Source of the DNA: Callorhinchus milii
Taxonomy: Eukaryota
Direction: 5' to 3'
NCBI RefSeq assembly: GCF_018977255.1
Contig: NW_024704742.1
Coordinates: 103,976,001-104,040,000, forward strand
Length of the DNA stretch: 64,000 nucleotides
The notes beneath the pieces are model-generated. The model searched no databases. It was not told where the DNA came from and saw only the letters and a list, made by a program, of their open reading frames with translations. The translations under genes were made by a program, and so were the position numbers. Positions 8,965-64,000 of this stretch are shown here, piece by piece; the stretch's first letter is position 1; each line of letters starts with the position of its first letter.

Positions 8965-9930
8965 CTTATAAAGTCCCTTCTGCTGTTGTCACCGTCTTTT
9001 TTTAACTACCATATATCTTTAGCTTGTCATCCTTCATCCCTTCCACTCCAGTCAGTGTGCCCCAAAACTCTGGAACTCCCTGCCTTAATTCCTTCACATA
9101 TAGGGTGCTTCATAAATGTGTGTGTCAGTTTAGCTCAGTGACCACCCCTTCCTCAAAATCTACCACTCCACTCTAGTCTCGGCCATGTCGTCCTTCGACT
9201 CCAGGATAATCCTGGAGGCGAAGAACAACCCCGGGCTTCTGTTTTCTACTACATAATAATAATCCTTGCATTTGATATAACGCTTTTCACGTTTTCGAGA
9301 CATCTCAAAGCGCTTCACAGAATATACTGTAAAGTAAATTGACTGTATATTTGTGGGCAAACGCGGCAGCCAATTGTGCACAGCAGTGTCCCACAAACAG
9401 TCTTTGATTGAAAATGACCAATTTATTATTGTTTTATTATACCTTTACATTGCACACATTAGCACACCAAACCTTCAAACAAAGTGAATAATGATATCAG
9501 CTCACGGACTCCATTTAAGTCCTGCTGCAAAATTTAGAAGAGTTCTGTACAAACGGTCAGCAAAAGTTATATTCAAAGACAATTCAGCCACCTTTCAAAA
9601 CTGATGCCCCACCTTGTTCAGGCTCCCATTCAATTTCCATTGAATGCTTTCGAGTTGTTCTCCTCCGTGAAAACCTGGTATATAAATGGTTCTTGTCATG
9701 AAAGCTGGGCATGCTGCTTTAATGAGCAAAGCTCTCAGCCTTCCTTTAAGTGTTGCTGCAAAATTCCCAGATATTTAGCTCATATTAATATTCTAATTCT
9801 AAACCATGGGTGTACATAGTTCAGTAGTTTTTAAGGAGAGCCTATAGGGAATAAATACACACAAATACACCTTTCCCATGTACACATCACAGCAAGTATC
9901 CCATATAAAAAATAATGAAGACTCGAGACC

Positions 9931-11855
9931 TAAAACTCAATTTCTCTCACATCCCGACTCCTCCGTCCCCCCTGCCACCCCGCACAGGTCAAGTCCTCCA
10001 ACCTTCACTGTGAGGAGATGCTGGATTTCCTTGAATCCAAAATCAAGGGAATCCGCTCCGCGGTCACTTCCCCTCCAACCTCCACCCACCCCCACCCCCT
10101 CCCTCCCACACTCCGACTCCTACCCATCCTCCCCTGCACACCTTCGAACCCATTTCCCCACCCTCTGTCACCAACCTCATCCTGTCCCTGAAACCCACCA
10201 CCTGCTCCCTTGACCCCATCCCCACTCCACTCCTTATCTCCCAGCACCACCTCCTTGCCCCACATATCACAGACATCATCAACCTGTCCCTCTCCTGTGG
10301 CTCTGTTCCCATTCCCTTAAAAACTGCCACCATCACTCCCACCTTGAAAAAACCCTCCCTTGATGCGTCGCAGCTATCAAGCTACCGGCCCATCTCCAAC
10401 CTCCCCTTCCTGTCCAAGGTCCTTGAAAGAGTTGTCGCCTCCCAGCTGCGCTCTTTCCTCTCCACCCATTCATTATTCGAACACCTTCAGTCGGGTTTCC
10501 GTGCTGCCCATAGCACAGAAACTGCCCTGGTCAAGGTCACCAATGACATCCTGACCATCTGCGACCAGGGCTCCCTCTGCCTCCTCGTCCTCCTCGACCT
10601 ATCGGCAGCATTCAATACGGTCGACCACACTATCCTCCTCCACCGCTTGTCCTCCCACCTCAACCTTCAAGGCCCTGTCCTTGAGTCGTTTAGGTTGTAC
10701 CTCTCCCACCGTCTTCACTATGTTTCCACGAAAGGCTTTTCCTCCACCCCCCGCACTGTCTCGTGCGGTGTCCCTCAGGGCTCTGTCCTCGGTCCCCTCC
10801 TCTTCACCCTCTATATGCTCCCCCTTGGTGACATCATCCGCAGACATGGGGTTAACTTCCACATGTATGCGGATGACACCCAACTCTACCTTTCCTCCTC
10901 TACCCTCAACTCCACGACCACCGATGTCCTGACAGCCTTCCTGTCTGACATCGAGTCCTGGACGAGAGACAACTTTCTTCAGCTCAACGTGCGCAAAACT
11001 GAGGCCCTCCTGATTGGTTCGTGTCAGCGCCTCCGCACCTCAGGCGCTGACACCATCAGCATCCAAGGCTGCACTCTCCACCTCTCAAAGACAGTCAGGA
11101 ACCTCGGGGTTCTGTTCGACCCTGAGCTGTCCTTTCTCCCTCAAATCCGCGCCACAACTGGCACCACCTTCCATCACCTCTGGAATGTCGCCAGACTACA
11201 GCACTACCTCACCCCTCACGCTGCTGAAACTCTGGTCCACACCTTTATCACCTCAAGGCTGGACTATGGGAACTCTCTCCTCGTCGGCCTTCCCGGCACC
11301 TCCCTCCACAAGCTGCAGGTCATTCAGAACTCTGCAGTTCATGTACTGTCCCGCACCAGGACCACATCACTCCCACCCTCGCTCGCCTCCACTGGCTCCC
11401 CATCCCCCAGAATTCAAGATCCTCATCCTCACCTACAAGGCCATTCACGGCCTTGCTCCCTCCTACCTCTCCGACCTACTATCCCCCTATCTACCTGCCC
11501 GTACCCTCCGTTCCTCTGGCTCCGGTCTGCTCCACATCCCCCGCCCCAACCGCCCTACCATCGGTGGCCGGGCCTTCAGCCTCTCAGCCCCGAGGCTCTG
11601 GAACTCCATCCCCCAGTGCCTTCGCTGCCTCCTCCCTTTCCTCCTTCAAGGCCGGTCTCAAGACCTTTCTCTTTGACCGAGCCTTCAGCTCCCCTCTCGA
11701 CTCTCTACCCCCTCCTCACTCCCTCCCTTCCCTCCCCTCACCCTGACCATTTCCCCCCAATGCTCGGGTCCTGACCCAACTGTACAGCGCCTTGGGACGT
11801 GCTCCCGACGTGAAAGGCGCTCTATAAATGGAATCTTGATGTTGTTGTTGTTGTT
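9931..11855 (+). mobile_element. L2-clade LINE, 5'-truncated, RT domain largely intact
   Basis: ORF 10344-11774 has [34 protein letters not shown] and YADD motifs; frame break near 11365; L2 3' end and (GTT)n tail; possible TSD CGAGACC at 9924-9930 / 11857-11863. The 5' boundary is approximate. Confidence 0.9.
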
Positions 11856-25300: not shown

Positions 25301-28300
25301 GAGTATAATGATGTGGGGAGTCGAACACAAACCCACCACGTACACGGTTATCGTTACTCTGTGGTTTATCATGAAAATCCCCACGAGAACCTTTTGTGGG
25401 TTGCAGTTTGCTACACTTTTCCATATCTTTCTTCTTTTCTGAGTTGCTGCCTTCTGCAGAAAAACTACTTGGAAGATCAGACACACTTTGTTCCATTGAC
25501 CTGGTCTTATACTCACTGTTCTTGGGCATTGGTTTCACTGGAGAGGTCGGTTTCCTTTTCTCCGCCTCTTGCTGACTTGCATGATTGACAGGAGACGCTG
25601 ACGGCAGCTGCACCTGATTCATTATTTTCTTAACTCTGTAGGGTTTATGGCTCTTTCCTTTTGGCATAGCAGAGTTTATACATTCAGCTAGAATGTCACC
25701 TTCCTCAGTTTTATCATCATCTTGCCCTGACTGAGGACCAGCATATCCTTTTGCTGCCTCAGCATCGTCCATGCTCCTCCCCTCAGTTGGGATGGTATCT
25801 CTCTTTTCCATTATTGCAGAACGAGTTCCTTCTGAATTTGCCAATTCATTTGGGGGTGACTCGATCGTGAGATCACTTAGTGACGTAGCTGTCGAAAAGT
25901 TTATGGGAGTTCCTTCAACACAATACACTCGGGGCATATCTTCCCGAAATAGATCATGGTTGAAGCTGACGTGCTTTTGAGAATGGATTCTATTTTGATT
26001 GGAGAGAAGTTTGTACACAGGCAACTGACTCGGTTTCCTTGCCACAGGAGGGGGTAACCGTGGTGCATTGCCAGCAGATTTCTTTGCTTTACTTGAAGAT
26101 TTTGTTGGCATGGCTGAAATAATACACTGTTCCAAGATTTCAATATCATCATCGTCATCGTCATCTTCCAACATGTCCTTCTCAGGTTCACCAGCTTTTT
26201 CTACTTTGCATTTAATTTTCTCACTTGTATCTTCCTCCTTATCAGGTTCATCGTTTCTTTGTTCGTCTTCATATACAGGAGGCATAACTCGGAGTTCAAG
26301 ATCTTTCTGAATAAACGGCTCATCAAGACTAAGAGCACTCAAGCTGGATGCACAAGAAACACCATCTGGCGTGTTTTCTGTGGCAAAATGCATCAATATA
26401 TCACTGTCCTGAGGAAGCTGGACTCTTTGAACAGCTGCATTCACAGCCTCTTGCCTGTGACCCGTCTCTCTGCTTTTAACGTTACTCTGTTCCTTGCTTT
26501 TATGCACTTCTCTTTTTAGCTGAGTCGGTTGGGGTGGTGGGGTTTTACTTCTGCTCGGAGGCATCGTTGGCCTGGGCTGTCTGGAAGATCACTTGGACTT
26601 ATGACACCGCTAACCATTTCACTGCAGGGTTCACTCTGAATAGAACTGGCAATTGACTGGCTCTCAAAACTGCCCAGTGAACTGACTGAACTGCATCTAC
26701 TGAAGACCAGAGGAGTTTCTTGCACATAGTGATCTGGTGGGCTCTTCGGAGTCTGAGCTCCACTTTTAGATGGTGATTTGGCACCTGAAGAGAACTCGAC
26801 AGCTTTCTGCCTGGACATGTCAGGCTGAGACACATTGGTGGCATGCAGCCGATTTTGTTTCATTCGTTGGTGATGGGAGGCAGAGGATGTCTCACTTATA
26901 CCTGTTTCATTGGGTAATGCCGCACGATTTTCCTTAAGGTCAATGATCTGCAGAGTGGTTCCATCATCTGATACACGCTTAGCTTGACCACGACCTTCCA
27001 TTTCATCCTCTGAAGACAGTGAAGATAGTGAACTACATCTTGAAAAGCAAATAGGTGTGTCCTCTACACAATAGGTCTGCATAGTTTCTTGGTTAATTAA
27101 AGGAGTCTTACAAGCCGACGATTTCTGTCCCGCGGGGTTAGGGGCAGCTCTAGAATGTGCAGAACTGGGGTGCAGGCAGTTTTGCTGACTAGATTTGCTG
27201 ATTTTGGAGCTTGGTGTGCTGGCACAACTGGATCCTGTGTGATCCTTTGTTGTGCTTTGAGCTGAAGAGCCTTTCGAATACATGAAAGCCTGGTTCTGTG
27301 AAGAGGGAGGAATTTCTGAGGAGTACTTCAAACTGTAGTCGATGGGCTGTTCAACATGGTGCTCCTCTTCTGTAAACTTCATACTGTAGTTTGTGGGCCT
27401 GTCCTCATCAGCCTGCTCTTCTTCAGAGTAACGCTCGCTGTAATTGGTTGGCTTCTCATCTTCATAATCATCCACCTGGCAAATAGACTGGTTCATTCTG
27501 TGCTCAGAATCCACCCGGATCGGCTCGGAGTTGTTGTGCACCCTGGCGCTATAAGAGGAGCAGTCTGACTGGCTAAACCGAGGCTGGAATTTGATGCGAG
27601 ATTCCTCTGCACTGCAGCCACTTTCACAAAACATGGAATAGCCGGAGCTCGGTTTCCTCGACTGTTTGTGTTCATTCCTTTTCATCTCTTCCTCTACAAT
27701 ATGCTTTGGTCGTGCCCATTGTTCATTCTGTGATGGGCTCTGCCGGCCGGAATTTAGTTGTTCATCTGAGTATTTGAGACTGTAGTTAATTGGCGTGTCT
27801 AGCTCAGCATCGTTGTCATCCAGATGATTCGCATTGTGAATTTTGTGGGCGAGATCTGCTGGATATTTTCCATAATTGCAGAACTTACTTTCATCATCCT
27901 CTGAATAAGATTCAATCGATGGTTTCATCTGCCCCCTCTTACCATACCCATCACTGCTGCTAACGCTATTCAAACTATCATTTGATGACCGCTTGTACTC
28001 GTTTTTTCCATAAGGCATGGAGCAGGTTCTGTTGGGGTTTTCAGGTTTATTATAATTAAAAATATTAGAATGGGGGTGAGAGGACGACGCTCGCCTTAGA
28101 CCGGTCCTGTCCTCTGACACACAGTGCAGGTCGGAAGCAGATCCGGAGCTTCTATCCTCAGAGGATAAATGCATATTTGATACCTCTTCTATGACCTTGG
28201 CTATTTGAGCTACACTGGTAGTCATCTGTCTTCCAATTCTTTTAGAAGGATCGGACACAATATCAGATGAATGAAAGGTATCAGTTCCTCTTCGATCTCT

Positions 28301-31909: not shown

Positions 31910-32238
31910 TTAATAATAATAATAATAATAATACTTGCATTTGATATAGCACTTTTCACGTCGGGAGGACGTCCCAAAGCGCTTCACAGAACACTGTAAA
32001 GTGAATTGACTGTATATTTGTGGGCGAACGCGGCAGCCAATTACGCACAGCAATGTCCCACAAACAGTCGTAGATTGAAAATGACCAATTTAATTATTGT
32101 TTTTGGTTTTTATTTGGAGGGATTATTATTAGGCGTGTGGAGTAAGGAAACTTGCCCAAGGTTTCGCCCTCTGCCTGGAATTGAACTCAGTTCTCTCGCT
32201 TGCAAAGCGAGTGCTCTAATCACTGAGCTACAGGACTT
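31910..32238 (-). mobile_element. Same tRNA SINE family, internally deleted, (TTA)n tail
   Basis: Head at about 32170-32238 and (AAT)n at 31911-31932. Confidence 0.85.
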
Positions 32239-32975
32239 CACAGGTATGAATTAAGGTATGAATGAAGGTGTGCATTGGAGTGGTGGGGTAGTAAGTGGGT
32301 AAGCAAACTACAAGTGTAGGTCTTGGCAAAGAACCAGATGTTTAAAACCCATCTCAGGGTTAAGCAGCACATCTGGTCCAGCTTGAGCGAGCAGAGAGGT
32401 TGAAGGAAATAGAATAGAAACAAGCAGATGACAAGGAGAAACCACCAGGTTCACCTCAGCGTTGTTAAAAGTTCAGCTACAATTCAGTTATGGCTCACCC
32501 AGGACTTGATGTCACACAGGCTGGTCAATCAAACAACAGTCCAAAATGCGAGAATAAACTTCAATAAATCTGCTTGTACCACTGTCTTCCCATGCTAAAA
32601 TAAATGTCTGTCTCCAATTCAATAGTTCATACTGAATCACATTAAATGGAAGTTCTATATCTTGTCTTATAAATAAGAGGCAGGTTATATTGCTAATGCT
32701 CTCAACCTTTATTTATGCCATTTAGTTTTTTTTAAAAAGCCTATTTTTCAGAAAGATATATTCATCAAATAATGTTTGGTTGCTTCATGTACTTAGAAAA
32801 GATAGACGACTTCAAATGCTTTTAAGTTTATCATGCTTATTTTCAGAGAAATTAATGGAACAGTTGATTTTCAGAATTGCACATGCCGAAGATAGGAACT
32901 GTACACAGTTTAGAGAAATAAAGTGACCTGCCAATGATTAAACTAAAATACTAAAGTGTTTATACATCTTTTTAC

Positions 32976-40186: not shown

Positions 40187-42095
40187 ACAACAACAACATC
40201 AACTTTACATTTGCATACGCCTTTCACGTCGGGAGAATGTCCCAAGGCGCTGGACAATCGATGTTTCGGACCCAAGTTGGGGATCGGGGAGGGTGGAGGG
40301 AGGGCGGGGTGGGGAAGGAGGGTGACTGAAGGCACGGTCGAAGACAAGAATCTTGAGACGGGGGGGGGTGGGGGTGAGGCAGAGCAACTGTGGGATGGAG
40401 TTCCAGAGGTGGGGGCAGAGTGGATGAAGGCCTACCTGCCAATGGTGGGGCAGGCGAGACGGGGACGTAAAGCAGGCTGGAGCCTGCTGAGCGGAGGGAG
40501 CAGGCAGGTTGGTAGGGTTAGGAGGTCAGAGAGGTAGGGGGAGCAAAGCCATGGAGGGCTTTGAAGATGAGGACCACAATATTGAATTATATGCTCTGTA
40601 TCAGGGGAGCCAGTGGAGACGGGCGAGGATGGGGCTGATGGGGTCTCGGAGCCTGGTGCAGGAGGGACACGGGCTGCAGAGTTCTGGATGATCTGCAGCC
40701 TGTGGAGGGAGGAGTTCGGGAGGTCGACAAACAGGGAGTTTGCATCGTCAAGCCTGGATGTTATGAATGCGGGTATGAGGGTCTTGACGGCCTGCAGTGT
40801 GAGACAGTGGTGGGAGCTGGGCAATGTAGCAGAGGTGGGGGAAGGCAGAGCGGGTCATGGCACAGATGTGGGATAGAAAGGATAGTTGAGGGTCAAACAA
40901 GGTGTCATGGTTCTGGACTGGCTTAGTAAGGTGGAATGAGCATCCTTGGATGGTGATGCTGTCAGTGCCTGAGGTGTGGATGTGCTGACGGGAGCCAAGC
41001 AGGAGGGCCTTAGTCTTGTTAATAATAAAAATAATCCATGCATTTGACACAGCACTCTTCATGTCTTCTAGACGTCTCAAAGCGCTTCATAGAAGATACT
41101 GAAAGTGAATTATTTTTTTTGGGAGCGAAACGCGGCAGCCAACTGCACACAGCAGTGTACCCACAAACAGTCGTGGATTGAAGTGACCAATTTATTATTG
41201 TTTTTTTTCTTGAGGGATTATTATCAGGTGTGTGGAGTAAGGAAACTCGGCCAGGGTTTCGCCCTGCCGGGTATCAAATACTGGTCTCTCACTTATGAAG
41301 CGAGTGCTTTAACCACTGAAATACAGGACTCCACGTTGACGTTCAACTGAAGAAAGTTAGCTCTCATCCAGGACTTGATGTCTGACAGACATTCTGTCAG
41401 GACAGTAGTGTTCCTGGAGTTGAGGGTGGAGGCAGAGAGATAGAGTTGGGTGTCATCCGCATACATATTGACTCCACGTCTGCTGATGATGTCACCAAGA
41501 GGAAGCATATTGATATTGAAAAGGAGGGGACCAAGGACAGAGCCCTGAAGAACTCTGCACTAGATGGTGCGGGAGCTAGAGGAAAAGTTATTTGTGGAGA
41601 TGAAGTGGAGACAGAGTGAGTGGTACGATCTGAACCATTCAAGGACAAAACCATGAAGGTTGAGGTGAGAAGAGAGGCGGTGGAGGAGGATTGAGAGGTC
41701 AACATAGGAACAGGAGTAGGCCATTCGGCCCTTCGAGTTTGTTGCCCATTTAATTAGATCACGGCTGATCTATACCTCAACTAATCCTTTCAATTCTAAT
41801 TTACCATTTTCTCCGCATATCCCTGACCTACCAAAAATCTATCAACGGTATCAAAGGCAGCAGAGAATCAAGGAGAACGAGGAGGCAGAAGGAGCCGTGT
41901 TGCAGATAGACAGAATGTCGTTCGTCATTTTGACCAGAGCTGTTTCTGTGCTGTGGATGGCATGGAAGCCCGATTGGAGGGGTTCCTGAAGGGAGAGGAA
42001 GGAGCGAAGCTGTGAAACAACGACTCATTCCAGGACCTTGAAAAGGAAAGGGAGGTTGGAGATGGGGCAGTAGTTTGAGAGCAGTGATGGGTCCA
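40187..42095 (-). mobile_element. L2 (about 1.9 kb) inserted into a SINE and itself carrying nested inserts
   Basis: (CAA)n tail at 40187; ITSRLDDANSL and [10 protein letters not shown] peptides; GGGCA at both flanks (40182-40186 and 42096-42100). Confidence 0.85.
41020..41331 (-). mobile_element. Same tRNA SINE family, nested in L2
   Basis: Head and tail recognisable; L2 sequence resumes on both sides. Confidence 0.85.
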
Positions 42096-42402
42096 GGGCA
42101 GGGCGAAGCCTTAGGCAAGGTTCCTTACTCCACACACTTTTTTACCTAGCAGTAAGTAGGAACCCAGTTGTTAGTCAATTGGCGGATCGCTTTTCCGGGG
42201 GTAATAATCCCTTCAAAAAAAACCAAAAATAATAATGTGGTCACTGAATCGACGACTGTGGGACACTGTTGTGCACAATTGGCTGCCGCATTTTTCCCAC
42301 AAAATATACAGTCACTACACTTTAAAGTATATTCTGTGAAGCGCTTTGAGACGTCTAGAAGACATGATAATGCGCTATATCAAATGCAAGGATTATTATT
42401 AT
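42096..42402 (+). mobile_element. Body and tail of a tRNA SINE whose head lies at about 40122-40186
   Basis: Starts gggcgaagccttaggcaagg, the sequence that follows the B box in intact copies. Confidence 0.85.
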
Positions 42403-44815: not shown

Positions 44816-46257
44816 CTGTTTAAAGAAAAGCCTCGGCATTAAATTAAGAACATAGAAAAGGAGAAACATGGGGATTAGATGAAGCTCTCTGTGCCTCCAT
44901 GCTGTGGCTCTGCAGTGAAATTATGCTTGATGCTGTTACTCCTTAACCTCTGGCCTCAATAATTAGCAGCAAGCACATCCCCTCAATGACATGCTGAAAG
45001 TGCAGCATGTCCACTGAGATATAGCAGTCCATTACACGTTGCGGAGACAAAGGATATGTTCAAAAAAGCTACAGACCTCGTCCTTCTGATGAATCTTCTA
45101 ATGAAGGTTACACATAGAACATTAACCTAGTTTTCTCCTTCAGTTTTGCTGACTCTGCTGTGCATTTCCAGAGCTTTCTGTCTTTTTTATTTAACATTTC
45201 CAGCATTTTTTAAAACAATAAAATCACAGGACACCATGCTTTCCTGGCTGTGCAGTTAAAATGACAGGAAGGAAAAAAAAACTGTCTGAGGGATGGATGC
45301 AGAATGCATGAAGCAGCTCTGAGAGCATTCAGTCACATGACAAACATCCTGAGAATCTCGGGCCAATAAGCTACTACACGCTGAATGGCTCGTAATAAAA
45401 TAAAAACGAAATGGCCTCGGGGTAGACAGAAGCAGTCATCCTTTTTAGCACATACATTTAGAACAGCACTGCCATTAAAAATGTGTATTCCTAAAAAGTC
45501 TTTTCTGCGAATAGTTGGGTTATCAGAAGCACCACTCTTGCCTAAAAGCAAAAAAAAACTGTATAATAAAAGCCCAGCAGTCTTGAATATCTAAATTAAA
45601 AGCATTAATTACCCACTGGAACTGAAATTCTGCAAATTTAAGCAGCAAGCTACCTCTAGGTCAACAAACCTATTCAGGTAACAGATACAAGAATTCGGTG
45701 AAACTCCAAGGATTTTTTTTGTCATTTTGCAGCTGCAGCAGGCGTGAAGCCCTCTGAATACATCAAACTAGTTATATTTATAGAAATATGGAGAACATTT
45801 GATAAAAGGGAAAAATGAAAACCAGTCGCTTATGGGCTAGCAGAAAAATTGCATTTGCAAATTGATTTTAGAAATGTGCTGGAATCTGACATTCCCAGAG
45901 GTAGTCACACTATTCTAAAATAAAGCTTAAAAAAAATCTCTTTGACCTTGCCTTTGGTCAACATGGTTTAAAATTCCCTTTCCCTGGTCAATGCTCACTA
46001 TTAGATTTGTCAAGCATTTTGGAAACTTTGCATGAAAAGCACAATATAAGCTATTATAGATTATTATTAATAAATAAATATTATTATTGAAACAGTTACC
46101 AAAATATAGTAGTTACCTACTTGTTCCTTTTATTCCATATTACTGCACAAAGCCAATAGAAATTTACTTGATGTCAGATTTAGTCAACTACAGCACAAAA
46201 CAAATGCAGGGTTTTGTCATTTGCAGGCTCAAAGTGTCAAAAATGGTTTTATACCAA

Positions 46258-57186: not shown

Positions 57187-57561
57187 AATAATAATAACCC
57201 TTGCATTTGATATAGCACCTTATCACATCTTCGGGATGTCTCAAAGCGCATCACAGAATATACTCTAAAGTGAATTGACTCTATATTTTGTGGACAAAAC
57301 ACGGCAGCCAATTGCGCATAGCAGTATCCTACAATCATGGATTTAGTGACCAATTCATTATTTTTTTTTGAAGGAATTATTATCCCGGAAAAACGATCCA
57401 CCAATCGACTAACAACTAGGTAGCACAGTAGGTTTCCTACTTACTGCTAGGTAAACAGAGGCGTGTGGAGTAAAGAAACTTGCCCAACATTTCGCCCCAC
57501 CAGGAATCAAACCCAGGTCTCTCGCTTGCGAGGCGAGTGCTCTAACCAATGAGCTACAGGA
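57187..57561 (-). mobile_element. Full-length tRNA SINE
   Basis: A/B boxes, central body, L2-like tail and (TTA)n. Tail-only copies occur at about 3565-3633, 5218-5352, 9253-9440, 29775-29878, 46727-46825, 58298-58400 and 61915-61970. Confidence 0.88.
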
Positions 57562-59086
57562 TAAGTTAGGAGAAAAGATATTAACAAAGAGTTGGTATCA
57601 CTATCATACTGTCCTTTGGTTTTGCATGCAAATTTAATCCAGTTCAGACAAAGAATCAAAGATTCATCTCTGGGCAACGTTACAACTGAAAGATATTGGT
57701 AGTTGAAATCCAGTTTCTGCTGATTAACTGACACAACTGATTTTTTTCAGTCAGTTGGGTGTCTGACACATGCGGAAATCCATAACCATGTTTAAGAGTA
57801 TCCAAACCAAACAGAGTTCCATGCATCCCCACCTATACGGGGAAATTCCAGAGATGATTTGCTGGAATGGAATGCACATTCTCTCCCTGCTTACCTAATT
57901 TCAGAAAGTATCAGGCACAGCTTAGCAAAAGCCAAGGCTTGGGGACCCTAGAGTGTGCATTGGTACTGCTGGAGTCTAACCAGCTAAAACCACATAGTTT
58001 GCCATTGCTGGGTTAATCAGAGCTGAGTGGGATGATTCCCTGCCCCTAGTGACTGGTCTGCCCTTCCAGGTCCTGCCGATGAGTTAGGCTGTCGTCAGCA
58101 CTGGCCTGGAATACTACGGACCCAGACTACTCAGGAACTGAACTGGACTACCGAGACCGCCAGAGAGAGGGATAGTCACTTGTTGATCATTTGACATCCG
58201 GCATGCGTGGGTTTGAGCCTTCACTTGATGGATGGCAGACAGATGACACAACTGACATTCTAGGCCACAATGAATACCGCAAAGTACAATCATCATTTTG
58301 CCCACAAAATATACAGTCAATTCACTTTAGAGAATATTCTGTGATTTGAGAAGTCTCCAAGATGTGAAAAGGCGCTATATCAAATTCAATTATTATTATT
58401 GCATAATTTATTAAAAGTATACTATATAAACTCAAAACTGTTTATTATTATAATTAACTGGAAATTTTTACCAGGAGACCCTTCCAAGTGTGCACAGTTG
58501 AATTATTTATGCCCTATTTCATACTGTGCTAGAATTGATGTTATACAATATAATTCATCCTGCATAAACACGCCTGACTCCTCAAAATGTCAAAACTAAC
58601 CTTGTCACATCTATCATGTGACCATGCTGATCTTTACATTTGTAGCACTTTGGCTGAAACAGCAGCATTTACAGACAATTTTGTTCCAGAAGCTAGTTTT
58701 TCCAGGGTTGATTCCACTTCTAAAATGTAACATGGGAAGGGCAAATAACTGGTATTTTTAATGTCATGGAAAAAGGAGATTATATTACTTGGATAAAATA
58801 AACAAAGTAAATGGAGGCAATTGAAACATGGTACCCAGAGTTTACAATTCTTAAACAAAATTAAGTATTAAGCATTTAAATGGGGCTTATTACAACATCA
58901 AAAAAGCTATTTCTGACAGTTATTCTGCAACTATAATATGAATATTTCTGCAGTAGTGAATGATCTGAAAACTTAGCAAGTCAGGCCAGAAACATTGACA
59001 TGTCCCAGGACATGCCAGCAGTCTAAGAGTTAATAGCAAATACATTTTCTTGCAATAACAGAAGGATTGTAAAAAATAAGATTTAC

Positions 59087-59288
59087 CTCTCTTTTTCCAG
59101 CTCTTCTAAATAGCCAGTGCCTTCTCGGCCTCCATTGACAAAACCTCTTCTTGGAACTGAACTCCCTGGAACAGGGCTACATTCTCCTGAACGACCAGAC
59201 ACGGATCCCTCTCGGCTTCCATATGAGTGCAGTGACATCTTAGTCCTTAATTTTATTGCAGGAGAATTCGCACTGTCCAAGTTCAATT
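59087..59288 (-). CDS. APC: APC legacy exon 3, 202 bp (upstream exons not found in the window)
   Basis: tttcag|AA TTG AAC...GAG AG|gtaaat; LNLDSANSPAIKLRTKMSLHSYGSREGSVSGRSGECSPVP...LEELEKER. Confidence 0.96.
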
Positions 59289-59807
59289 CTGAAAGTTAAG
59301 CAACATATATTTTAATAGTCACCATTTGTAAAATTAAATTTGCATTTTTTTAAAATGTAAAATGACATACTTTTTAAAAAATTCAAGAATGATACATCAA
59401 CGTGGACTTATGGAAAGAATGTGAAAAACAATAATTCAGAAAGTCTCAAGGCCGTAGTAATGTTTTGCACCAGTGAATCAAATCTAGTGTATCTATCCAT
59501 TTTGTATATTGCTCATCACCGGTAGGAAATTATTCTGGATAAACAAACTACACTATACTTATGTTTCTTCGTCTTCTCATCTCTGGATGTGAGTGAGGGA
59601 ATTTATTATTTGATTTATAAACAGTCACCTGATGTTGTGAGCAACAATATATCAGATTGTTTTAATATAACACATATAATGTATGTCAGTAAATCAATCC
59701 ACTACAGTTTACCTGCAGCGCTGTTAACAAAAACAACATTTATATAACGCGCTTTACACAGCATAGCATCTCAGAGTGCTGACCCCAATAATGGAAATGA
59801 TTTAGCC

Positions 59808-61040
59808 ACAACAACAAATTGCATTTACAATTGCATCCCCAAATTGCATTTTGGGACAGTCATTTTGGACGTCCCAAAATTGAGGATTTGCACCCAAGCT
59901 GGGGATTGGATTGAGGGTGGGATAGAGAAAAGTTGAATGAAAGTAAGGTCAAAGAGAAAGGTCTTGAGACTGGCGTTGAAGGAGGCGAGGGAAGGGGCAA
60001 GATGGAGATGGAGTGGAGGGAGAATGAGGATGTTGAACACAATCCTCTGGTGAATGGGGAGCCAGTGGAGCCGGGCGAGGATGGGGTGATAGGCTCTCGG
60101 AGCTTGAAGCAGGAGATGACATAAACTGTAGAGTTCTGTATGGTCTGCAGCTCGTGGAGGAAGCAGTTGGGATATCTGATGAGCAGAGAGTTTGCGTATT
60201 CTAGCCTGGACATTATAAAAGGATAAGGATCTCAGCGGCCTGAGAGAGAGGTAGTAGCAGGAGCAGGCAACGTTGTGGAGATGGCAAAATCTGAATAGTT
60301 AAAGAGCATAAATGCGTGTTTTAAAGGACAGATGAGAGTTGAACAAGACATTGAAGTTCCGGATTTGCTCCGTAAGGTAGAGTGCGCACCCATGTAGATT
60401 AATGCTGTACAAAATACTGCAGATGCTGGAAATCTGAAACAAAAACAGAAGTCGCTGGGAACACTCAGCAGGTCAGGCAGCTTCTATGGAGAAAGGAAAG
60501 CGAGTCAATGTTTCGAGTCCATGACCCTTCGTCAGAACGGGTCGTAGGCTCAAAATGTTCTGACGAAGGGTCGTGGACACGAAACGTTGACCCACTTTCC
60601 TTTCTCCATAGATGCTGCCCGACCTGCTGAGCGTCCTCTAGATTAAATAGAGAATAGTCCTAAATAGAGAAGGCGCTGAGGGGAATCAAGCAAAAGAGCC
60701 TCTGTATGGAGAAAGTTAGCTCTCAACCAGCACTTTATGTCTGATAGGCATTTGGTCAGAACAAAAGTGGTCTTGGAATTGTGGGTGGAGGCTGAGAGAT
60801 GGAGCTGGTTGTCATCTGCATAAATTTGTAAGTTAACCCAATGCCTGCAGATAACATCGCCAAATGGGAGCATGTAGATATTAAAGAATAGAGAACCGAG
60901 GATAGAGTCCTGAGAATGTTGCACGTGATGTTGCGGAGGCAGGAGAAGTGGAGAAATGAAGATAGGTAAGAATGATACCAGGAAACGACAGAACTGTGAA
61001 GGTGGAGCTGAGAGGAAAGGTGGTGGAGAAGGATAGAAAG
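59808..61040 (-). mobile_element. Decayed L2 interrupted by a hairpin element
   Basis: SRLEYANSLL and IYADDNQLHL peptides on the minus strand. Confidence 0.75.
60403..60638. mobile_element. Palindromic Penelope-like non-autonomous element with hammerhead-type motifs
   Basis: 75-bp inverted arms at 60464-60538 / 60557-60631; TAGATTAA direct repeats at 60395-60402 and 60639-60646; CTGACGA...CGAAAC cores. Confidence 0.7.
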
Positions 61041-64000
61041 GCTGACAGATAATCCAGAAAGGGTGGCTTTTACTTCAGGTTAATTTAAACCAAGTCTGAA
61101 ATTCCTATGTCACCTTTTAATTTAGTGGGCAGTCTTTCCAGAAAACCTTATTAAACCAATTTGTTTGGGAGTCAGTATATCACTAGTGCAAGAAGTTTGG
61201 TGGAATCTTATTTTATTAACAACATAGCATTATTGAATACCCTGCAACGCAACTACCTATAACTATCAATAATTTTACCATCAAAGAGGAAAATAATCTT
61301 GTATTATAATCACCACACAACAGATCAACCAACAAAAAGCACCTCTTAAATCTGTATTTTGAATATCAGCTGCTCTCTCACAATACAGAGTACAGCTCAA
61401 TAAACCGGAGCTCGATATCGTACATGGAATATAATTCACTAACAAAGTTTGTTGACCAAAATGACCATATACAGTTCCAACAACCTGCTTGTTAGCTATA
61501 AAAACAATGAATTAAAATAATTCCTAACAAACACTTAACAATTCCGACAGTAGATATGTCCCTAATTAAAATCGTATTTTCATAAGCTCAGCTTCTGAAC
61601 TCATTCCTTAAATGTTACAATCCCCTTATGCAATTTTTCTGTTCCCAATATTGTACACTGACCCACTGCATGATCTAAATAGATGAACTAATAAAGGAAT
61701 ACAGCCAAGATAGACAATGATAGAATCAAAATAAATAATGCAATGAACAGCATTATTCATTATTCATTCATTAGAGAACAGCAACCTCTAATGAGAAACT
61801 TTCTTCAGCTTTCTTTTTGCAATATTGACTGCACTGTAGACCGTTAACTACAAGGAGCGTTATCTGCACTGCACTTAATCTGATAGAAATAACATCAGAA
61901 GCACCCTATCACGAATTTGAGACATCTTAAAAGCGCTTCACAGAATACACTGTAAAGCAAATTGACTGTATTATATATATATATATACACACACACACAT
62001 TATTTTCAGCAGGTACATTGCCAACACATGAAATGTCAAGACCATCAATGTAGAAAATGGAAATATTACATTGCTACAGGTTTATATCCTGAGGTTGGTG
62101 TCCAGGCATATTTTTATGGGACAGGGAGTATTGGTAGCATTTACTCAATTTCTAAATCGTGATATACAAACCTAGAAATGGCAGATATGGATATTCTAAG
62201 TCCTATGCACTGGATCAGTGTTGGCTAACCTTTATGGCCAATAAAATAAATATTTCTTGATTGAATATTTCTTGATTTATAGCATAAATCTATGCTATTT
62301 TGTTATTTCTAGGATATTTGGGGCATTCAGTAGTGCACAAATGCACTAGATATTCTGAGTCAAGATGGTTTAACTGGCAGCCCACGGATGCCATCTGGCC
62401 TGGGGGACGATTTCATTCAGATTGTGAACCGTTTTCAACTCCATTGCCCGATTAGTAAATACAGTTCCCAAGCTAATCAGGACACGGTCACTGGGGGCTC
62501 AGGCACAAGAGTGGCTGATCAGGATAAAATATTGCTTATGCTGCCCATGGAATTTCTCAAATCCAGCATCTGGCCCTCAGCAGCCAATAGGTTGGACCAG
62601 CCTGTTCTACATAATCAATATCCCTTCTTGAGCATTCATATTGCTTTACTGACAAGAGAAAAATTCAGAAAACCCAAATTCATTCCAGTGTCAACATTTT
62701 ACTCTTTTGCTGCTGTTTTCATACAACGCACAAATTATAAGTCACATGTTACACATTTCATTTATAAATCTATGTTTGTTTCAAAAGTTGATACTATGCT
62801 GGGATATGACTTTTATGGCTGGCCAACAATTTTTTTTCTTGATTGAATATTTCTTGATTGATGCCATATTCAATCAAGGAAAAACCGAAAACACACTCTT
62901 GACCTACCTAGACTAGTGTGAATGTTCAGGAGGTGCTTCTAGACAGCCCCATGGGCTACAAGGTGGCCACCACTTGTTTAAATATTAATGACAATGGTCT
63001 CTAGCTAAAATTTGCACAGGTAAAGAAATTACACCACAGCTGTATAGTGGTAAAGTGCTGGTTTGTGTGTTGGACTACAACTCTGCCTGCAGCCAGGAAA
63101 TACAAAGAGGTGATTTTAATATATATACATTTATAATATATATACATATATATTTAATATAATGTATATATTATATACATAGATTTAAAAATATGTTGCA
63201 ATGACATGGGTGAACTATTGAGAGTACCAGTCAATGAAATTAAGAACATTAAGCATAAATCCCTTCTACTTTTGCAGATAAATATCACTATAAATAGGGC
63301 ATTAAATAAACCGAAAGCCTGATTTACAAAAATAGAGGATTACAACCAATTAGTGGAACAGTCCTTCTGTTGTCCTTCGTACATTCATGATGTGCTTAGT
63401 ACAATATCAAAGGACACTTGGGATCTTATTCAAAGGATACTTATGATTTCAAATAAAAGGCCTGTATTTTATCAAGCGGACAACAACATTCAGTTATATA
63501 GCCCTCGCCAAACAGGAAAATGCCACAACATGCTTCAGAGTCACTGCCAAAGTAGGGTGGGAACTGACCAAGGGCACAAAACTAGGTTTTTAGAAAGGTT
63601 TTGAGAGTAGAGAGTGATGAAAGGAAAGATTTAGCGTTCCAGGGAGCAGGGCAAAATGGCTGAAAGCCCCACACCAATGGCTGAACTCAGTGTGTGAAAT
63701 TCTTATCCATTCAAGTTTGATTTTTTCAACACCCTCCAAAAGTGTATGTATGCCTTACTAGTTCATTCTTCCAGATTGTCCAGAATTCCACAGACCATGT
63801 CTTTTCCACGCCAGGCTCCACAAGCTCATCATCTCTCTCCATTCTTACCAGGCTTCTCTGGCTCACTATTCCCTTGTAAACTGACATTAAAATCCTTGAT
63901 CTAATCCTCAAATGCCTCCACACCCTCACAATGTGCAGAATTTGGTATGGGTAAGGATGTAGGCAGCAGAGCTTTGAATGAGCTAGACCTTTTTTGATGG

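Follow-up and report, generated by a model that had tools for sequence, protein, structure and literature searches.

A hairpin insert with hammerhead ribozyme motifs on both strands lies close to a coding exon of APC in Callorhinchus milii, which raises the questions of what kind of element inserted there, how its inverted arms arose and whether its ribozymes could act. The window, i.e. the whole stretch of DNA analysed, comprises 64,000 nucleotides, and the features of the locus are listed in the table below. The locus is very probably a single dead insertion of a high-copy Penelope-like element (PLE) family of cartilaginous fish, in which two 5′-truncated 3′ ends stand head to head within an 8-bp target-site duplication (TSD) and one of them carries a tail.

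Features of the insertion and its surroundings (positions are those of the window)
Feature	Position	Strand	Remarks
Nearest APC coding exon, residues 76-145	59086..59295	-	APC protein mapped onto window
Decayed LINE, host of the insertion	59947..61041	-	Paralogue in window at 10035-11771 carries Pfam RVT_1
TSD, left copy, 8 bp, AT-rich	60395..60402	+	TAGATTAA
Filler or variable end between TSD and outer end of family, 6 nt	60403..60408	.	Family contigs end at 60409/60410
Penelope-type 'tail', segment between the two 3′ ends of the family, about 28-32 nt	60409..60440	-	Left side only
Long copy of the repeat's 3′ end, 5′-truncated at GTT/CTGA	60409..60538	-	Left arm is 60461-60538
Minimal type I hammerhead, APC-sense	60504..60538	-	Stem II of 5 pairs, one of them G-U; stem I of 3 pairs
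Mini-palindrome TTC-4 nt-GAA with an additional C	60528..60538	+	Inherent in hammerhead core; apex of inner fold-back
Spacer (60539-60556) and the GTT shared with the right arm, together a 21-nt partial copy of stem II-GAAA-GTT	60539..60559	+	
Right arm, short copy of the repeat's 3′ end, starting GTT/CTGA	60557..60634	+	Without last ~50 nt of family end
Minimal type I hammerhead, antisense to APC	60557..60591	+	ACGU intact; predicted cut after 60588
TSD, right copy	60639..60646	+	TAGATTAA

The earlier note on this DNA had described an insert of about 236 bp between direct repeats, and the interval between the two copies of TAGATTAA was found to be 236 bp. An 8-mer common to two random 18-nt windows arose in 65 of 20000 trials. 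With the insert excised and one repeat retained, the flanks aligned with two LINE paralogues in the window with a net difference of +1 nt. The alignment scores for zero, one and two repeat copies were 109/111/108 and 113/112/109; as they are nearly equal, the empty-site test depends on length and not on score. Since the flanks are colinear within 1 nt with both paralogues, the repeat is a true target duplication. Contigs of four runs (four organisms; 4 of 24 runs) were aligned on positions 60230-60830, and both outer junctions of the insert were bridged by contigs of run X1, with 0 and 1 other letters. Mis-assembly is therefore excluded, with the proviso that X1 may share its source with the window. 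For organisms B-D the flanks were not covered by contigs, and no empty-site joint was seen among the best 15 of 500 joints.

The host LINE, which we take to be of CR1/L2 type, is represented elsewhere in the window by a best-preserved copy at 10035-11774 (+) with an open frame of 579 codons that matched Pfam RVT_1 (E 1.4e-33). A dispersed SINE-like repeat of about 330 bp was also observed, in at least 10 fragments (e.g. 9253-9435, 31917-32241, 41020-41334, 42101-42402 and 57187-57561). APC lies on the minus strand of the window, where a 471-residue stretch was 100% identical to a named APC record; the next 11 protein matches to this stretch were all from sharks and rays (77-79% identity) and the matches below them reached at most 65%, a pattern suggestive of a chimaera. 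In APC sense the exon that encodes residues 76-145 follows the insert at a distance of 1.1 kb. Because residues 1-75 fall outside the window, we infer the intronic position, which is in keeping with the earlier placement of the element within an APC intron. The large last APC exon appeared in two reading frames at about 26447-26588 (-), while the matching protein record is continuous; the split is probably an assembly frameshift.

Inverted arms had been reported with a length of 75 bp; the arms are present, but each measures 78 nt, and they stand 18 nt apart. They differ at 8 of 78 positions, and as 5 of the 8 differences are in CpG context, neutral decay is indicated. The inverted repeats are not terminal, since 58 nt are unpaired on one side only. 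Together with the GTT that it shares with the right arm, the spacer is a partial direct copy of stem II-GAAA-GTT (16/21 to the right arm, 15/21 to the left), which confirms the earlier description of it as a decayed partial copy. The same 21 nt are complementary to 60507-60527 and stop where the cleavage triplet lies. At stem II position 11.2 the spacer has a letter in common with the left arm that is absent from about 96% of the family depth. Hammerhead positions (11.2, 15.2-16.2 and 17/1.1) follow the standard numbering scheme.

A motif descriptor built from the published consensus of PLE minimal hammerheads was run on both strands. It matched exactly the two motifs already noted on the two strands and nothing else in the window, and gave 0 matches on both strands of 150 Markov-simulated 64-kb windows. 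The CUGANGA core, GAAA, NUH and stems I and II were present in both motifs. At 15.2-16.2, where a palindrome would serve stem III of a dimer, the plus motif has ACGU and the APC-sense motif has ACAU in its place, as first described; the plus motif has a G-A mismatch in stem II. The metazoan PLE consensus consists of CUGANGAH, a G..C stem II, GAAAN-palindrome-NUH and a 3-bp stem I (PMC4209133), and the fit to it supports the earlier assignment to the Penelope-type minimal type I hammerheads. The likeness comprises CUGANGA with the extra A, a stem II closed by G-C, GAAA, the palindromic 15.2-16.2 of the plus motif, NUH and a 3-bp stem I, whereas the two motifs of this locus are decayed and trapped. 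Dual minimal hammerheads on opposite strands are known in PLEs (PMC4209133). An Rfam scan of 60000-61000 returned no hammerhead family and two unrelated matches far below thresholds. Besides the hairpin, the window contained one copy of the repeat family, a more decayed related repeat end at 45084-45217 (+) with a broken hammerhead motif, a short TTCTGATGAA duplication at its 5′ edge and a local score of 102 against a shuffle maximum of 71 (n=500).

Alignment of the four runs yielded 12361, 23007, 25025 and 10527 contigs, matches to the LINE flanks included. Depth over the arms was 1e4-6e6 versus 0-800 on adjacent flank bins; these figures derive from contigs, and contig depth is not copy number. 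Among the best 24 of 1452 loose ends, all four runs showed a pile at 60409/60410 and three of them a further pile at 60437/60441 (X1 counts at these positions: 149, 428, 211 and 203), so that the family has two 3′ ends about 30 nt apart, with A/T-rich letters beyond them. At the other end of the arms, upstream sequence past 60538/60557 was common to all four runs, with low consensus agreement (0.36-0.47), and this common continuation identifies both arms as truncated copies of a longer element. Both arms are thus 5′-truncated ends of a repeat that is found in four organisms at very high copy. With the letters that prevail in the family at 60516 (95-97% of depth), 60579 (95-97%) and 60592 (97-99%), stem II becomes a perfect 5-bp helix and stem I gains in length, so the family motif is better than either copy at this locus. 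None of the variants listed fell at hammerhead core positions, and the loose-end consensus behind 60499 contained GAAA and ACGT, or a one-letter variant, in the four runs (agreement 0.48-0.58). Depth also fell near the predicted cleavage site, an observation that was not used because contig depth cannot reveal ends. Family patterns gave 0 matches in viral contigs and 0 in metagenome contigs; two matches in bacterial genome contigs were taken as chance.

The truncation points admit another reading, in which the hammerhead-to-tail segment of about 130 nt forms a short non-autonomous unit by itself, resembling a SINE or retrozyme and mobilised in trans, and the locus is its fold-back copy. Both arms begin at the same base, the second copy in the window likewise begins at the 5′ edge of the motif, loose ends pile at 60538/60557 (73-254 contigs) and family depth is very high. 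The pile at 60538/60557 was forced, however, because the reference has no family sequence past those points, the loose letters continue identically and non-randomly in all four runs, and a head-to-tail array is absent at the locus; a short unit of this kind is improbable. The hairpin as a whole fares no better as a mobile entity. Spacer depth at 60546 was 53, 569, 301 and 18 in the four runs, and in X1 the value of 53 compares with about 1e4-6e5 on the arms, which speaks against the non-autonomous unit of its own that the earlier note had proposed. As this junction is rare among the copies and other head-to-head junctions were seen among the best 15 of 500 joints, the hairpin is not a propagating unit, and the rarity of its spacer junction shows that it is not a retrozyme.

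A truncated insertion of a PLE, the preferred reading, agrees with the described anatomy of these elements. PLE insertions are reported to have an inverted 5′-truncated copy and a tail of 30-40 bp at one end (PMC8557442), or TSDs of 8-10 bp and a 31-bp tail, with head-to-head as the commonest arrangement (PMC3846280); two RT start sites define the Penelope tail, and targets are AT-rich (PMC11167929). PLEs were detected in all 23 vertebrates studied in PMC4350176, elephant shark included. The insertion itself displays the TSD with its empty site, membership of a high-copy family, two 3′ ends about 30 nt apart, truncated arms and decay. Four features of PLEs were thus found: the inverted 5′-truncated head-to-head copy, two 3′ ends about 30 nt apart and a tail at one end only (the left extension being 58 nt in all), a short TSD in AT-rich DNA and a minimal hammerhead in the terminal repeat. 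A direct pLTR pair or a tandem of whole ends was absent, the only direct repeat being the internal partial one of 21 nt, but such a pair is not required of truncated copies. Two measurements count against the PLE reading: the one-sided extension of 58 nt exceeds the usual 30-40, and the right arm ends about 20 nt short of the nearer family end. No ORF for RT or GIY-YIG was found at the locus, and truncated copies are expected to be without one; nor was an open frame found from an ATG or GTG in the stem II loop, where an in-frame stop follows, so that a Poseidon-type ORF start was not seen. As this ORF link is lacking, the tie to Penelope is one of anatomy and literature. The earlier derivation from Penelope is supported to that extent, by the tail, the inverted truncated copy, the TSD and the motif consensus.

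Compared with EN+ PLE insertions (Penelope/Poseidon and Neptune; PMC3846280, PMC8557442), the locus is alike in its inverted copy, 8-bp AT-rich TSD, strong 5′ truncation, extension at one end, 3′ ends about 30 nt apart and junction palindrome; it differs in having no ORF left, an extension of 58 nt and a nested, aborted 21-nt copy at the apex. Non-LTR retrozymes (PMC7229834; bioRxiv 10.64898/2026.07.22.740005), which the available texts report in one chondrichthyan, are likewise non-coding, hammerhead-bearing and PLE-related, with a TSD of more than 4 bp. They are head-to-tail tandems with a ribozyme in each unit, whereas an inverted pair with one motif per strand was found here. The non-LTR retrozyme was rejected for want of a tandem array, and the label 'retrozyme-like' was dropped with it.

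The same class of motif was sought in metagenome contigs, where the scan gave at least 118 loci with 124 motifs among the matches listed. These loci come from other families, which resemble the one studied here in the motif alone, and an intact motif was the basis of their selection. Stem II had at least 4 pairs in 115 motifs among the matches listed, 3 pairs being imposed by the pattern. The matches listed comprised 111 distinct contexts, 104 of them with at least 100 nt upstream. Among these matches a head-to-head copy within 300 nt was present in 47/104 contexts (43 loci, four counted twice) and a tail-to-tail copy in 0/108, so head-to-head architecture is the common outcome for this motif class. 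Enough flank was available for 41 fold-backs among the matches listed, some of them duplicates; 19 had a candidate TSD of at least 7 nt (background 363/3000), and 9/41 combined a TSD of at least 11 nt with a one-sided extension of 30-58 nt (background 28/3000). Of the ORFs of at least 130 aa beside the motifs listed, 0/68 matched a PLE domain (RT or GIY-YIG), the families being unrelated.

Several metagenome loci showed features of their own. L066 (52-245) and L099 (124-237) contained head-to-tail repeats with an 80-nt period and a minimal hammerhead per unit, i.e. very short retrozyme-like tandems, and L099 carried an inverted copy as well. In one family (L008, L018, L062, L064, L084 and L103) the inverted copies ended 18-23 nt into the motif, inside stem II, which may be a second hot spot for fold-back. 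In L011, L013, L014, L019, L025, L034, L060, L067, L078 and L094, ACGT was separated from the apparent stem I strand by two additional letters, possibly a variant with a short palindromic helix III. At about 2029 in L009, some 13 nt of the sister copies were absent directly after the predicted cleavage site.

How the inverted copy arose may be read from the nested junction. From known PLE biology, the GIY-YIG endonuclease of an autonomous PLE would make a staggered cut in AT-rich DNA, and the RT would start copying the element RNA at the outer initiation site and stop shortly beyond the hammerhead. The anatomy of the locus suggests that the cDNA end might then snap back on the TTC/GAA mini-palindrome, 21 nt being copied, and that the new GTT end would slip and re-pair with AAC at 60536-60538, whereupon the 78-nt arm would be synthesised and linked to the opposite target side. 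We put the chances of this snap-back chain as a whole at about even. In the observed register, 60528-60530 pair with 60535-60537, C60538 is looped out and 60507-60527 pair with 60539-60559. The inner fold-back covers 24 consecutive positions (18 Watson-Crick pairs and 6 transitions) and then stops abruptly, and re-pairing of GTT with AAC accounts exactly for the 18 nt of the final loop and for the long arm. Against the snap-back, the priming hairpin has only 3 bp and one bulged C, and the DNA fold of 60520-60538 prefers another stem of 4 bp. The register suggests that the spacer is an aborted first fold-back, primed by snap-back on cDNA. That the nested 21-nt and 78-nt copies are the fossil of a Penelope RT that snapped back twice on its own first-strand cDNA is a tentative and rather doubtful proposition. 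Among 18 junctions listed, the four short-loop fold-backs of one metagenome family (L021, L036, L110 and L117) were seen by eye to turn close to a short palindrome that lies 15-20 nt upstream of the core. Arkhipova et al. interpret the palindromes at such junctions as the result of self-priming on an antisense template (PMC3846280); priming on cDNA would fit them equally well, and among the papers listed by our literature search none stated the cDNA version.

Twin priming would produce a head-to-head pair by another route: both nicked strands prime RT on element RNA, the cDNAs are joined and the spacer is a repair patch. An anole PLE protein, a predicted dimer, cleaves and extends both strands in vitro (PMC11167929), and junctions vary within the family; but the end of the right arm (equivalent to about 60457-60461) fits neither listed family end (60409/10 and 60437/41), and the spacer matches the left arm in the precise register of a fold-back, rare letter included. 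Twin priming is accordingly possible but somewhat unlikely. A template switch to a free 3′ end that genuine ribozyme cleavage had produced, with the spacer as an in vivo footprint, would account for a partial copy that stops exactly at the cleavage triplet. Yet the arm contains GTT only twice, so microhomology suffices to predict the junction, and the case is a single one (n = 1). Such a partial copy was present in 0/104 metagenome contexts among the matches listed, where the 4 direct matches were all 80-nt tandems, and for the anole PLE the available text of PMC11167929 reports no RNA ends found at the cut site. We consider a footprint of this kind very unlikely.

Whether the insert could act as RNA depends on its fold. 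The earlier expectation of a long dsRNA stem was borne out by fold energies of -148.5 and -152.9 kcal/mol for the two strands (z -16.7 and -18.7), which were equalled by 0/200 shuffles on either strand. Each strand has one ribozyme motif, and its own antisense copy is transcribed first. Forcing the ribozyme fold within the whole element costs 42.6 (plus) or 45.8 (minus) kcal/mol, and the pair probabilities of the hammerhead stems were below 1e-13. Given this predicted cost of about 43-46 kcal/mol and the damaging changes in both motifs (palindrome lost in one, G-A mismatch in the other), self-cleavage at the APC-intron locus is unlikely, contrary to the earlier suggestion that it possibly occurs. 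In a transcript spanning the insert, the antisense arm would be made first and the motif would be trapped, so that no cleavage would be expected. On this reading the hammerheads are passengers from the pLTR, and the insert decays neutrally. According to the available text of PMC4209133 and the review PMC6765202, PLE minimal ribozymes act slowly, and only when a second copy is present, and the anole PLE ribozyme required its protein (PMC11167929). When the two 35-nt motifs were cofolded, the lowest-energy structure was not hammerhead-like; as a stem III of 2+2 bp is beyond the nearest-neighbour model, this result was given no weight. An intramolecular dimer with the spacer was ruled out, since the spacer has no CUGANGA and its GUU is already needed for stem I.

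An exapted function in APC pre-mRNA, be it as a dsRNA stem or as a self-cleaving switch, or an origin as a MITE-like DNA element, might be suggested by the very stable stem on the APC-sense strand and by the distance of 1.1 kb from a splice acceptor. The 8 single-sided arm differences are mostly CpG decay, however, both hammerhead motifs are damaged, the 58 unpaired nucleotides leave the inverted repeats non-terminal, and Rfam found no RNA family; these readings are extremely unlikely. A MITE or fold-back DNA element was rejected on the 58 nt unpaired at one end and on a spacer depth of 18-569 versus 1e4-6e6 on the arms.

The APC-intron locus is an ordinary leftover, one of many dead PLE copies. 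Through it, cartilaginous fish (here probably a chimaera) join the lineages in which PLE-type minimal hammerheads occur: in PMC4209133 such fish are absent among the species in the available text of Fig. S3 and Table S1, and a literature search with subscription papers, Repbase and Dfam outside its range found no description of such motifs in sharks or chimaeras. The formation of inverted copies and second strands by PLEs is described as unresolved in PMC8557442 and PMC11167929, and the only wider value of the locus is mechanistic, in that its nested fold-back junction yields a specific, testable snap-back model. If general, head-to-head pLTRs would result from hairpin-primed second-strand synthesis on cDNA instead of arising on the antisense RNA templates that were proposed in 2013, and every head-to-head PLE insertion would be born with its ribozyme trapped.
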